Source: Escherichia coli (lineage in GTDB: Bacteria > Pseudomonadota > Gammaproteobacteria > Enterobacterales > Enterobacteriaceae). Taken from it: 64,000 bases of DNA. Numbering within the stretch: the first letter of the stretch is position 1; each line of letters opens with the position of its first letter. Location of the stretch: NCBI RefSeq assembly GCF_045037415.1, contig NZ_CP173440.1. The stretch is one strand, 5' to 3'. Under the pieces are notes generated by a model. It ran no database searches. It worked only from the letters and a program-made list of their open reading frames with translations, and was not told where the DNA came from. Shown piece by piece: positions 22,929-29,405 of this stretch. The translations under genes were made by a program, and so were the position numbers.

Positions 22929-23360
22929 TTGGAAAGGAGTCATGATTTGAAATTCAATAACAATCAAAATGAAAAATGTCTCAATAAGGTGTTGAGTTAT
23001 TTTTCAGAAAAAGATACTAACCTTATTGTCGTTATAATAGGGCCTTCCCGGTCAGGGAAAACCCTTCTGGCGAAGCGTGCATTATTTGATGGTTTATTTA
23101 TTTCACCAGATGAGCCGATAGCTGGTGAGAATTTTATTCAGAGTTTATCAAATAAAGATATCATCGTTGATGATGTTGTCCTTTTTGATATGCGGAATGT
23201 GTTGAAATACGTTCTTCATTCACTTGCCTCGGGAAGGAAAGTGATTTTGACCGGGCGTCCGGAAGATGAGTCTTTGTATCAGAAGCTTCTGTTAAATTTG
23301 CCTAAGGAAATTTCACCATTATTTATTAAGCTGGCGGGTGAAAATTCCTTGTATCTGTGA
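22929..23360 (+). CDS. hypothetical small P-loop NTPase
   Basis: 143 aa, AT-rich codon usage; Walker A GPSRSGKT and Walker B-like IIVDDV. Sits directly upstream of csf1. Confidence 0.4.
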   Translation: MERSHDLKFNNNQNEKCLNKVLSYFSEKDTNLIVVIIGPSRSGKTLLAKRALFDGLFISPDEPIAGENFIQSLSNKDIIVDDVVLFDMRNVLKYVLHSLASGRKVILTGRPEDESLYQKLLLNLPKEISPLFIKLAGENSLYL

Positions 23361-23422
23361 GCAGGGACACTTAACTAATTTGCCATCAAAATGGCATAGC
23401 TTATTTTAGGGGAGGGGGAGCT

Positions 23423-24214
23423 TTGAATCATCCTGTAGAGTCAGTATATAGCGCTCTGACGAGTATTTTATTGCCCTATATGGGTGAGCCTGTGCCTGTG
23501 CAACGAAATTGCTCATGCTGCGGCAGAGCTCCCTCAGAGTTCGACGGGGTAGGCTTCGAGCTGGTCAACGCCTACAGGGAACGTGTTGTGCATTGCCGCC
23601 CTTGCCAGACATTTTTTGTTTCTGCTCCAGAGCTGATGGGCGTGGAGAACCCCAAAAAACCAACAACCGGCCAGAAATTTGGCATGTGGTCTGGTGTTGG
23701 GGCTGTTATTAACGTTGAAGACAATTCTTCGGTTCTTTTAGCCCCTCAGGGAGTGGTCAATAAACTACCTGAGCATTTTTTCGATCACGTAGAAGTCATC
23801 ACGGCCACCAGCGGTCAGCATCTGGAATACCTGTTTAACACCGAACTGAAATTCCCGCTGATTTATATTCAAAACTTCGGCGTGAAAACCTACGAGCTTG
23901 TTCGCTCACTGCGGGTCAGTCTGAGTGCCGACGCAATTTATACCTGTGCCGATCAACTACTCACCCGGCAGAACGAAGTCCTTTACATGCTGGATTTAAA
24001 AAAGGCTAAAGAACTCCATCAGGAAATAAAAAACTACTCCAAGAAAGAGATGGATATCTTTATCAGAACAGTAACCCTGCTGGCCTATTCGCGGATAACT
24101 CCTGAAGCCGCCTCGAATGAGTTTAAGAAAAACAACCTCATTCCGTTACTGCTGCTTCTGCCGACTGATCCCCATCAACGCCTGAGCATTTTGCACCTCT
24201 TGAAAAAGGTATGA
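23423..24214 (+). CDS. csf1: type IV CRISPR large-subunit-like protein Csf1 (Cas8-like)
   Basis: 263 aa; zinc-finger cysteines CSCCGR...CRPC near the N-terminus; position at the head of the csf operon. Track start is a TTG codon. Confidence 0.5.
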   Translation: MNHPVESVYSALTSILLPYMGEPVPVQRNCSCCGRAPSEFDGVGFELVNAYRERVVHCRPCQTFFVSAPELMGVENPKKPTTGQKFGMWSGVGAVINVEDNSSVLLAPQGVVNKLPEHFFDHVEVITATSGQHLEYLFNTELKFPLIYIQNFGVKTYELVRSLRVSLSADAIYTCADQLLTRQNEVLYMLDLKKAKELHQEIKNYSKKEMDIFIRTVTLLAYSRITPEAASNEFKKNNLIPLLLLLPTDPHQRLSILHLLKKV

Positions 24215-24783
24215 CCATGATTTTCTACGATAATGCGTTTCGGTTGCGTATCTCTCACACAAGTGTTTACCGGATCCACCAGCACCTGGATTTTTTCATG
24301 CAGGAACGTAAGGGAGAGAAGCTGCCGTACTCTTTTAAAATTTTTCCCGGTACCGGGAATGATTCGAGACTGCTGGTCCGCACAGCCACAGCTCTGGAGC
24401 TGCCAGGGGAGAAAAAAAGAGAGCTTACTCTCTCTGAGGGCCATGAAATTAAGTTCATTACGTCAATGGCCATCTTTCATAAAGGAACAAAGTTAGAAGG
24501 CCATGGCCGACGCCAGTTTGCTCCATCTGATGAAGCGAGTTATCAGATGGCCCTCACCAAATTAGCGAAGGCTGGTCTTGACTCCCGTCAAATCGTCGTG
24601 AGTGGCCCGGAATTCGTCCATATCGACAAGGGCAATGCTCGCCGTGGTTTTATGCTTCCTGTCTTCACTGTTCAGGGGGCCGCCACTATCAGCAATCAAC
24701 AGGAAGCTGAAATGGCCATCGTTTATGGCGTCGGCCCTAAACGCGTTTTTGGTTGTGGTTTCATGCATCTGGCAGGGGAGTAG
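24211..24783 (+). CDS. cas6: Cas6-family crRNA endoribonuclease (Csf5)
   Basis: 190 aa; C-terminal glycine-rich loop GVGPKRVFGCGF typical of Cas6e-like enzymes. ATG overlaps the csf1 stop (ATGA). Confidence 0.55.
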   Translation: MTMIFYDNAFRLRISHTSVYRIHQHLDFFMQERKGEKLPYSFKIFPGTGNDSRLLVRTATALELPGEKKRELTLSEGHEIKFITSMAIFHKGTKLEGHGRRQFAPSDEASYQMALTKLAKAGLDSRQIVVSGPEFVHIDKGNARRGFMLPVFTVQGAATISNQQEAEMAIVYGVGPKRVFGCGFMHLAGE

Positions 24784-24785
24784 TC

Positions 24786-27361: not shown

Positions 27362-27365
27362 TTTC

Positions 27366-28397
27366 ATGAGAACTTTAAACTTCAACGGTAAAATTTCGAC
27401 TCTGGAACCACTGACTGTAACAGTAAAAAATGCGGTCTCAACTTCCGGCCATCGCTTGCCTCGTAACGGTGGATTCAATGCAGCCCCGTACTTTCCAGGT
27501 ACCAGCATTCGGGGAACTCTTCGTCATGCTGCGCATAAGGTCATTGTCGATCGTGTGGGCCTTAATGCAGACGGAAAATCACCTTTCGACCTGGCAGAAC
27601 ATTTCATGCTGGCCCAGGGGGTGGATATCAATGGTGAAGCCGAAACCTTCGCGCCAGGTGAAATCAATGCTGGTGCTGAACTACGTAGCAAAAACCCGTT
27701 AATCAGCTTGTTTGGTCGTTGGGGATTAAGCGGCAAAGTTGGTATAGGGAATGCTATCCCGGATGGTGATAACCAGTGGGGGATGTTTGGTGGGGGTGCC
27801 CGCTCAATTATGTTTCAGCGTGACGAAAGTCTGATGGAGTTTCTTGAGACAGACCAGGTTGATCGTCTGGAACGCCTGCTCGAGGAACAGGCTGAGGCAA
27901 GTGTGGATATCTCTCAGATCAAAACAGAGCAGGATGCACTCAAAAAGGCGATGAAGTCGGCTGATAAAGACACCAAAGCTGAGCTTCAAATCAAAGTACG
28001 GGAGCTCGATGAAAAAATTCAGGCCCGCAAAGATCAGAAGCAGGAATCTCGCGAGTCAATTCGCCGCCCGATTGACCCGTATGAAGCGTTTATCACCGGC
28101 GCAGAACTCAGCCATCGCATGAGTATTAAAAATGCGACTGATGAGGAAGCAGGGCTTTTCATTTCTGCATTAATCCGCTTTGCAGCCGAACCACGTTTTG
28201 GCGGTCATGCGAATCATAACTGCGGTCTGGTGGAGGCTCACTGGACAGTTACGACCTGGAAGCCGGGTGAACTGGTACCAGTTACACTTGGAGAAATCGT
28301 CATCACACCGAATGGTGTTGAGATTACCGGGGACGAGTTGTTTGCTATGGTAAAGGCATTCAATGAAAATCAATCTTTTGATTTCACTGCCCGCTAA
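27366..28397 (+). CDS. csf2: Cas7 backbone protein (Csf2)
   Basis: 343 aa; N-terminal glycine-rich RAMP segment YFPGTSIRGTLRH; immediately precedes the array leader. Confidence 0.7.
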   Translation: MRTLNFNGKISTLEPLTVTVKNAVSTSGHRLPRNGGFNAAPYFPGTSIRGTLRHAAHKVIVDRVGLNADGKSPFDLAEHFMLAQGVDINGEAETFAPGEINAGAELRSKNPLISLFGRWGLSGKVGIGNAIPDGDNQWGMFGGGARSIMFQRDESLMEFLETDQVDRLERLLEEQAEASVDISQIKTEQDALKKAMKSADKDTKAELQIKVRELDEKIQARKDQKQESRESIRRPIDPYEAFITGAELSHRMSIKNATDEEAGLFISALIRFAAEPRFGGHANHNCGLVEAHWTVTTWKPGELVPVTLGEIVITPNGVEITGDELFAMVKAFNENQSFDFTAR

Positions 28398-28462
28398 CTC
28401 CAAAAGCTGGTGGATTTTAGTGGCGCTATTTAATATTTTATAATCAACCGGTTATTTTTAGA

Positions 28463-29405
28463 GTATTCCCCCCGTGTGCGGGGGTTATCGGCAACCTCAA
28501 TTCCTAATGGCTGTCTAAGGAAAGTATTCCCCCCGTGTGCGGGGGTTATCGGCAGGGTTTGCCCTTTTGCACCGCGCAGCGGTCGTATTCCCCCCGAGTG
28601 CGGGGGTTATCGGAGCAACGTTTCCGGATTATATGGCTGGAACGTGTATTCCCCCCGTGTGCGGGGGTTATCGGTGGTGCTCTCAACCGTCACCCGCTGG
28701 CTGGAAGTATTCCCCCCGTGTGCGGGGGTTATCGGTGGTGTTGTCCACGGTCACCCGCTGGCTGGAAGTATTCCCCCCGCATGCGGGGGTTATCGGGCAC
28801 CCTCACGGATACCTTTTGCACAGTGTTAGTATTCCCCCCGCATGCGGGGGTTATCGCCTTAGAGAAGCAAAAACCCCACCGAGGCAGGGGTATTCCCCCC
28901 GTGTGCGGGGGTTATCGGTTACTTTTTGGCAGTTGGTAAAACACTTTTGCGTATTCCCCCCGCATGCGGGGGTTATCGGCGAAAACGGCAACCTTCATAA
29001 AAACGTCTTTTGTATTCCCCCCGTGTGCGGGGGTTATCGGCCGAGATTGAGTAAAGCAAAGTAACGGCGGTGGTATTCCCCCCGCATGCGGGGGTTATCG
29101 GCAGCGTCTGAACGGACGAAACATCCCTGTTGAGTATTCCCCCGTCTGCGGGGGTTATCGGCGAGCGCTCTCCTGGTAAATCGGTAGCTCGGAGTATTCC
29201 CCCCGCATGCGGGGGTTATCGGGCTGGATTTCCGTCAGTTGGTCAGCTGCTGCTGTATTCCCCCCGTGAGCGGGGGTTATCGGTTCCGGACTCCTGTTTC
29301 CGGCAGTGGATTAAAGTATTCCCCCCGCATGCGGGGGTTAACGGCACTACCAGATCCGAATGGACACCCGTAATGAGTATTCCCCCCGCACGCGGGGGTA
29401 TCGAC
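28463..29405 (+). CRISPR. CRISPR array, 16 repeats (29 bp) and 15 spacers (all 32 bp)
   Basis: Repeat GTATTCCCCCCGTGTGCGGGGGTTATCGG at a strict 61-bp period. The terminal repeat at 29377 is degenerate, so the leader is the 65 bp at 28398-28462 next to csf2. One repeat (29134) is 28 bp. Confidence 0.95.

Follow-up and report, generated by a model that had tools for sequence, protein, structure and literature searches.

The 64,000-nucleotide stretch of Escherichia coli DNA analysed here (contig NZ_CP173440.1 of assembly GCF_045037415.1; hereafter, the window) carries a CRISPR-Cas locus (short palindromic repeats, clustered and regularly interspaced, and their associated genes) that is almost certainly of type IV-A3 and essentially the system that was dissected on the plasmid p1530 of Klebsiella pneumoniae 808330 and solved by cryo-electron microscopy (cryo-EM). 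Genetic, population and structural work has already described that system, and the present copy is the reference system with another spacer load. We found no sequence feature at odds with this assignment. The initial annotation of the DNA, which was made from the sequence alone, had linked the repeat and spacer length to the IV-A3 variant, and the subtype is now borne out by IV-A3 profile models, by matches to the solved structures and by a leader and repeat identical to those of p1530.

Five co-directional and tightly packed open reading frames (ORFs), all of full length and all on the + strand, lie upstream of the array. Based on their coordinates and on the PADLOC profiles, they follow the order csf1, cas6, dinG, csf3, csf2 and array that had been proposed, with the coding part, the cas operon proper, at 23423-28397. 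Profile searches used the PADLOC subtype models and NCBIfam, and a search of the solved structures in the Protein Data Bank (PDB) gave matches to chains of the K. pneumoniae IV-A3 cryo-EM complexes. The first gene, csf1 (23423..24214; 263 aa from a TTG start), encodes the Cas8-like large subunit of protospacer-adjacent motif (PAM) recognition; it matched Csf1_2_IVA3 (E = 1.8e-122) and Csf1gr8 (E = 5.5e-151), and its product is identical to PDB 8rc2_G at 263 of 263 residues. It is followed by cas6 (csf5; 24217..24783), assigned by PADLOC profile as the Cas6e-like endoribonuclease that processes the precursor of the CRISPR RNA (crRNA), for which the IV-A3 model (Cas6_0_IVA3, E = 7.8e-86) far exceeds the generic Cas6e model (E = 7e-10). 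The third gene, dinG (csf4; 24786..26660; 624 aa), encodes the CasDinG 5'-3' helicase, the effector of interference; it matched Csf4_0_IVA (E = 1.1e-262) as well as the NCBIfam models DinG, YoaA and cas_csf4, whereas the IV-A1 DinG models of PADLOC matched it weakly (E about 1e-16 to 1e-17). Its residues 1-624 align with residues 1-624 of PDB 8s35_M (1404.7 bits). The assignment of the last two genes, which the initial annotation had left for confirmation by hidden Markov models, also held: csf3 (26654..27361), the Cas5 that caps the crRNA 5' handle, matched Csf3gr5 (E = 7.2e-125) and is a full-length match to PDB 8rc2_F (503 bits), and csf2 (27366..28397), the Cas7 backbone subunit, matched Csf2_1_IVA3 (E = 6e-151) and NCBIfam cas7_csf2, with residues 1-343 matching PDB 8rc2_A (767.7 bits). 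Over their full lengths, DinG, Csf3 and Csf2 score about 2.1-2.3 bits per residue against the PDB chains. Cas6 has no match in the PDB, because it was not modelled in the IV-A3 maps (PMC11519345).

The same genes decide whether the locus might instead be a derivative or hybrid of type I-E that needs a nuclease in trans, such as the Cas3 of the host. Cas6 is Cas6e-like and its relatives are named type I-E Cas6/Cse3/CasE by the Prokaryotic Genome Annotation Pipeline (PGAP), and the repeat length, the spacer length and the AAG PAM are also those of type I-E. However, Csf1, Csf3, Csf2 and DinG match type IV models (E = 1e-122 to 1e-262) and the solved IV-A3 complex, and in the PADLOC and NCBIfam searches no operon protein other than Cas6 matched a type I-E model; a Cas6e-like Cas6 is a known IV-A3 trait. 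Neither the operon nor the annotation of the near-identical DNA that covers the window includes cse1, cse2 or cas3. Likewise, cas1, cas2 and cas3, which had been noted as missing from the window, are absent from the PGAP annotation of the regions of plasmid NZ_ON081623.1 that match it at 99.7-100% identity, a comparison that excludes short gaps and the other ~200 kb of that plasmid. Published interference by this system is also DinG-dependent and nuclease-free (bioRxiv 10.1101/2023.06.23.546257; PMC11519345). A type I-E derivative has a negligible probability, and it is refuted at the level of sequence.

The array, delimited by repeat finding and by direct parsing of the window, occupies 28463..29404 on the + strand and consists of 16 repeats and 15 spacers, of which S1 is adjacent to the leader; the last repeat (29377-29404) is degenerate. 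Direct parsing reproduced the 29-bp repeat and the 15 uniform 32-bp spacers reported earlier, all 15 being exactly 32 nt long. From 28463 the repeats recur with a period of 61 nt, and the single exception, an interval of 60 nt, is due to a C missing from the 12th repeat. The consensus GTATTCCCCCCGTGTGCGGGGGTTATCGG (29 nt) has a 6-bp stem, a 4-nt loop and a 7-nt 3' tail, the last of which would become the 5' handle of the crRNA. The internal repeats vary in the loop, which reads GTGT or GCAT, and on folding every repeat variant retains the hairpin (about -12.1 kcal/mol). No further copy of the repeat was found on either strand of the window with up to 4 errors allowed, and no CRISPR-repeat family of Rfam reached its gathering score, the Rfam matches being limited to a group II intron and sok. 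A second array was considered on account of extra places of the repeat in the nearest relative, and was rejected when these turned out to be off-register repeat alignments within the array.

The leader (28398..28462, + strand) fills the space from the csf2 stop codon to the start of the array and is 65 bp long and AT-rich (32% GC). Newire et al. 2020 (PMC7434947) reported a conserved leader of 65 bp. For the extraction of spacers from p1530, Benz et al. (bioRxiv 10.1101/2023.06.23.546257) used an 85-nt pattern of partial leader and repeat, which window positions 28406-28490 match exactly. The extent of the locus was originally given as 22929-29405. Its array and cas portions stand, but its start does not, since the first few hundred base pairs belong to a P-loop ORF that is not a cas gene and the cas operon begins at 23423.

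The spacers were searched against a phage collection and, in blocks, against PLSDB; those left unmatched were compared with IMG/VR as exact 24-mers, and the contexts of the targets were then read. Targets were found for 11 of the 15. Seven spacers match plasmids, and two of these point to the conjugation genes of F-type plasmids: S14 is identical (32/32) to the final 32 nt of traL on pKPN3 (5' flank ATG), the PLSDB search block that contained it returning at least 5000 records, mostly traL, and S15 matches the 3' end of traE on an IncFIA/FII plasmid (31/32; AAG). Two others, S3 (28614-28645; 32/32; AAG) and S13 (29223-29254; 29/32 to 32/32; CAG), are directed 74 bp apart at the same DUF6685 gene of IncFIB/IncFII(K) plasmids. 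S4 (28675-28706) and S5 (28736-28767) differ from each other at 4 positions and match two alleles of one site (31/32 each to one allele, 27/32 to the other; AGG for both), within an ORF of 73 aa that small ColRNAI plasmids carry upstream of their integrase gene. The pairs S4/S5 and S3/S13 suggest repeated sampling of identical targets. The seventh, S9, matches the start of a 334-aa gene on plasmids of ~100 kb (29/32 to 30/32; AAG).

Four spacers match temperate phages. S10 (29041-29072; AAG) and S12 (29162-29193; AAA) are each identical (32/32) to a Klebsiella temperate phage, S7 (28858-28889) matches the E. coli phage SaltyDalty (30/32; AGC), and S8 matches an IMG/VR lambdoid prophage in an intergenic region that resembles an operator (32/32; AAG), PHROGs naming replication genes in this prophage. 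The protospacers of S7 and S12 sit between the Q antiterminator and the holin and lysis genes, where the late operon begins and a block of transcription would be most polar, and that of S10 lies ~1 kb upstream of Q, so that three of the phage spacers fall within ~1.5 kb of this late-gene antiterminator. For S1, S2, S6 and S11, no plasmid match outside arrays was seen among the 60 matches sampled per PLSDB search and no match was found in the phage collection or as exact 24-mers in IMG/VR, searches that would overlook rare plasmid targets and chromosomal targets. The array had been described as a record of the plasmid's competitors; with seven of the 15 spacers matching plasmids, four matching temperate phages and four without a match, this description is only partly right.

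The flanks of the targets carry the signal expected of the system. Position -1 is G in nine of the 11 protospacers (P = 1.3e-4), and the complete AAG PAM occurs at five (P = 4e-7). Apart from the array itself, no self-target was found in the window with up to 9 mismatches allowed, or in 150 kb of the nearest relative with up to 8.

All seven plasmid-matching spacers are in coding sense (two-sided P = 0.016 when the 7 spacers are counted and 0.06 when the 5 independent genes are), and their crRNAs would therefore pair with the template strand. They also lie mostly at the ends of genes inside operons, namely at the 3' ends of traL and traE and, for S9, at the start of the gene. These positions raise the idea that natural arrays reveal rules of strand and position, with selection keeping the spacers where a block of transcription is most polar. 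We regard this as a rather unlikely proposition: the strand bias and the clustering around Q are small-sample hints from one array, and published assays found interference to be independent of strand and acquisition to be unbiased, without strand preference.

The phage spacers also bear on what the array now does for its host, because its main present benefit could be the quieting of resident prophages and plasmids by non-destructive CRISPR interference with transcription (CRISPRi) and not the exclusion of incoming competitors. Four of the 11 spacers with assigned targets match temperate phages of Klebsiella or E. coli, with S7, S10 and S12 placed around Q and the lysis genes as described above, and within clonal group CG147, self-targeting IV-A3 spacers occur in ~60% of the strains that have IV-A3, prophages accounting for many of them (PMC11781037). 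On the other hand, the most widespread target among the matches listed is traL of IncF plasmids, and IV-A3 lowered the transfer of pKpQIL ~900-fold (PMC11781037) and both the transfer and the stability of pKJK5 (bioRxiv 10.1101/2023.06.23.546257). In CG147, a traL spacer is present in 65% of the IV-A3 strains (PMC11781037). A chief role in the quieting of residents seems rather unlikely.

How the IV-A3 system of the window would work can be proposed from experiments that others have published on proteins identical to these or nearly so (Benz et al., bioRxiv 10.1101/2023.06.23.546257; PMC11519345; PMC7434947; PMC11781037). What the window itself shows is that the gene set is intact, that the leader and repeats are canonical, and that the targets are real and have the PAM signal to be expected. 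The array would be transcribed from the leader side, and Cas6 would cut each repeat at the base of the hairpin, giving crRNAs composed of a 7-nt 5' handle, a 32-nt guide and a 3' hairpin. Each crRNA would assemble with Cas5, Csf1, Cas7 and Cas6 in the ratio 1:1:6:1, six copies of Cas7 per IV-A3 complex being the number given in the literature. Csf1 and Cas5 would then read the AAG PAM, and an R-loop would form as the guide pairs with the target strand, whereupon DinG, recruited via Cas7, Cas8 and Cas5, would be loaded onto the displaced strand. ATP-driven 5'-3' translocation of DinG is predicted to block the elongation of transcription, and binding at a promoter would block initiation without DinG; in neither case would the DNA be cut. 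Transcriptional repression that depends on DinG and needs no nuclease has been described for this system (Benz et al., bioRxiv 10.1101/2023.06.23.546257; PMC11519345). The repressed targets would include the F-type transfer operon (through the 3' ends of its traL and traE genes), the DUF6685 gene found on IncFIB(K)/IncFII plasmids, the small ORF upstream of the ColRNAI integrase gene, and the region from antiterminator to lysis genes of lambdoid Klebsiella phages.

The plasmid alone would make no new spacers. Insertion at the leader end would be carried out by the chromosomal type I-E Cas1-Cas2 of the host, and this would explain the I-E-like repeat, the 32-nt spacers and the last base of the repeat, which is derived from the PAM. 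One repeat of the array bears on this proposal. The repeat at 28829-28857, which precedes S7, is the sole internal repeat that ends in C and not in G, and the best S7 protospacer, in SaltyDalty, likewise has a C at position -1; the two together point to the type I-E carry-over of the last PAM base. Judged from these bases, the repeat is a putative natural relic of acquisition in the manner of type I-E, with AGC as the non-canonical motif. Carry-over of the last PAM base into IV-A3 arrays with Cas1/2e was shown experimentally by Benz et al. (bioRxiv 10.1101/2023.06.23.546257).

Related arrays retain part of this history. The closest relatives have the same spacers minus internal blocks, one of them has a different spacer at the position of S6, and the window array is without a spacer that is present between S5 and S6 in other relatives. 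The distant plasmid NZ_CP132692.1 has four different spacers at the leader end, and has S3, S4, S6, S7, S10 and S13-S15 in common with the window together with a variant of S5 that carries 2 mismatches. Common spacers at the trailer end and lineage-specific ones at the leader end fit with addition at the leader end and loss by recombination between repeats.

These relatives are mainly plasmids of Klebsiella. A megablast search with 22800-29500 found the locus on 849 plasmid records, Klebsiella being the source of 816; the top match covers the entire query at 99.7% identity, and the identity is at least 95% to loci on more than 800 IncHI1B/IncFIB Klebsiella plasmids. The best-matching plasmids are typed as IncFIB/IncHI1B, MOBH and MPF_F and as conjugative, which confirms the association with Klebsiella plasmids suggested at the outset. 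The whole window maps to the K. pneumoniae plasmid NZ_ON081623.1 with one rearrangement and, judged by the PGAP annotation of the corresponding regions, carries equivalents of repB, mobH, traD, traF/H/G, umuDC and hok. The order csf1-cas6-dinG-csf3-csf2 is also kept in four more divergent loci (Klebsiella, Dickeya, Salmonella and Citrobacter), whose Csf1 proteins are 56-64% identical to that of the window; the type IV-A gene order is quoted in PMC7434947.

Several observations weigh against a fully working system in the present plasmid. Six of the 11 protospacers lack the optimal AAG (AGG in two, and ATG, CAG, AAA and AGC in one each) and several matches between spacer and target carry 1-3 mismatches, so some spacers may act weakly or not at all on the targets identified. 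What distinguishes close relatives is the deletion of internal spacers, without new spacers at the leader end, and there is therefore no sign of recent acquisition in the present lineage. Finally, an insertion sequence, IS4321 (IS110 family; 21297-22623, 1327 bp), lies 800 bp upstream of csf1, and a ~33.5-kb inversion relative to NZ_ON081623.1, one breakpoint of which is at the left end of the element, places repB beside it. These rearrangements could alter the transcription of the operon if its promoter lay upstream of the P-loop genes.

Taken to its end, this line of argument would make the locus intact in sequence but silent or decaying, its native upstream promoter severed by IS4321 and the inversion and its array only losing spacers. 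IS4321 interrupts the gene two ORFs upstream of csf1, and a scan of the region for promoters and terminators gave as many matches as shuffled sequence, promoter-like matches being no commoner than expected from it; the deletions in the arrays of close relatives point the same way. However, all five cas ORFs are of full length and identical or near-identical to proteins from functional and structural work, and the leader and first repeat are intact. IS4321, or a deleted remnant of it, is present at the same site in relatives from many isolates and has thus persisted, and the 62-bp gap before csf1 contains a candidate sigma-70-like promoter (TTGCCA-16-TATTTT). In addition, mRNAs of cas7, dinG and cas6 were detected by reverse transcription PCR in three of three clinical isolates with a IV-A3 system (PMC7434947). 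A silent or decaying locus is accordingly very unlikely in our judgment, and the five genes and the array are best regarded as an intact IV-A3 system.

The ORF directly before csf1, at 22947..23360 on the + strand (137 aa; TTG start with a strong Shine-Dalgarno sequence), has the Walker A motif GPSRSGKT, which is GPSGSGKT in its relatives, and the Walker B motif IIVDD. No Cas family of PADLOC or NCBIfam matched it, Pfam gave weak P-loop/AAA matches, and its AlphaFold2 model (pLDDT, the predicted local distance difference test, 84) resembles generic ASCE/AAA+/RecA-like cores such as those of MuB, ORC, E1 and RecA. Apart from two remote homologues, relatives of it were found only in the present plasmid lineage. 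One of the two remote genes immediately precedes a csf1 with 76% identity, and the other is on a contig that has lost the cas operon, where the neighbouring backbone genes are kept. The gene is missing from the four divergent IV-A3 loci. Being restricted to a lineage, missing in divergent loci and able to outlive the loss of cas, it was rejected as a sixth cas or core accessory gene. From its motifs and predicted fold, it is a lineage-specific neighbour, a predicted minimal P-loop/AAA+-like ATPase, and not a component of the system. Less likely still than the rules of strand and position raised above is that a lineage-specific pair of mini AAA+ genes directly upstream of csf1 modulates the system. 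The other member of this pair, a paralogue directly upstream, is split by IS4321 in the window (remnant at 22624-22862) and is intact in NZ_CP132692.1.

On the other side of IS4321, the replication initiator gene repB (20234-21322, - strand) has had its first 8 codons replaced by 29 that are read from the end of the element, and may therefore be altered or inactive. Among the upstream backbone ORFs, NCBIfam matched an ISL3 transposase alone. A group II intron (29740-31646; Rfam RF02005 at 29771-29996, with the ltrA reverse transcriptase at 30101-31588) is located 335 bp past the array and ~27 bp upstream of the umuD start codon. It is missing from NZ_CP132692.1, which has a LexA-box-like sequence just upstream of umuD, near the point of intron insertion. 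Further along the window are a RES-Xre toxin-antitoxin pair at ~33387-34378 and, near it, the sok antitoxin RNA of a hok/sok module for post-segregational killing at 35297-35472 (Rfam RF01794, 96.9 bits). A repeat of ~530 bp with 92.6% identity between its copies (40726-41252 and 61361-61888) lies in the region that flanks the transfer genes, and each copy overlaps a 118-aa ORF.

Among known systems, that of p1530 and of the K. pneumoniae IV-A3 cryo-EM complexes (PDB 8rc2, 8s35-8s37) is the closest. It has the same set and order of genes, an identical Csf1, full-length matches to DinG, Csf3 and Csf2, an identical 65-bp leader and repeat, and the same plasmid family and PAM. Only the cargo differs, its array having ten spacers (bioRxiv 10.1101/2023.06.23.546257) against the 15 of the window, while in the flanks the window also has IS4321, the inversion and the group II intron. 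The arrays surveyed on IncHI1B/IncFIB plasmids (PMC7434947) and in CG147 (PMC11781037) show no difference of substance from that of the window: they too are single arrays beside csf2, with a 65-bp leader, an AAG PAM, traL spacers against IncF plasmids, a minority of phage spacers and common spacers at the trailer end, and what sets the window apart is S1, S2, S6 and S11, which have no match in the collections searched. Type IV-A1 of Pseudomonas oleovorans likewise carries out DinG-dependent, nuclease-free CRISPRi with Csf1, Csf2, Csf3 and Cas6 (PMC11519345). This situation is different from that of the window in its gene order, dinG-cas6-csf1-csf2-csf3, and from IV-A3 in its five Cas7 subunits, its 8-nt handle and another interface for the docking of DinG (PMC11519345). 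Type I-E, as found in E. coli and on the K. pneumoniae chromosome, has in common with the window a 29-nt hairpin repeat, 32-nt spacers, a Cas6e-like nuclease and an AAG PAM of which the G becomes part of the repeat, and its adaptation module in the host would serve the IV-A3 array in trans (bioRxiv 10.1101/2023.06.23.546257). However, it has Cse1, Cse2 (Cas11), Cas3, Cas1 and Cas2, which the locus of the window is without, and it degrades DNA, whereas the effector of IV-A3 is a helicase and its outcome is silencing (bioRxiv 10.1101/2023.06.23.546257).

In short, the window provides a worked example of a IV-A3 array in the form of a spacer-by-spacer list of targets, in which phages are the targets of about a third of the spacers that could be assigned, and the hints of strand and position found in it could be tested on hundreds of public arrays. 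A plasmid-borne CRISPR system that does not cut DNA shapes the coexistence of resistance plasmids in K. pneumoniae, and is under development as a tool for CRISPRi.

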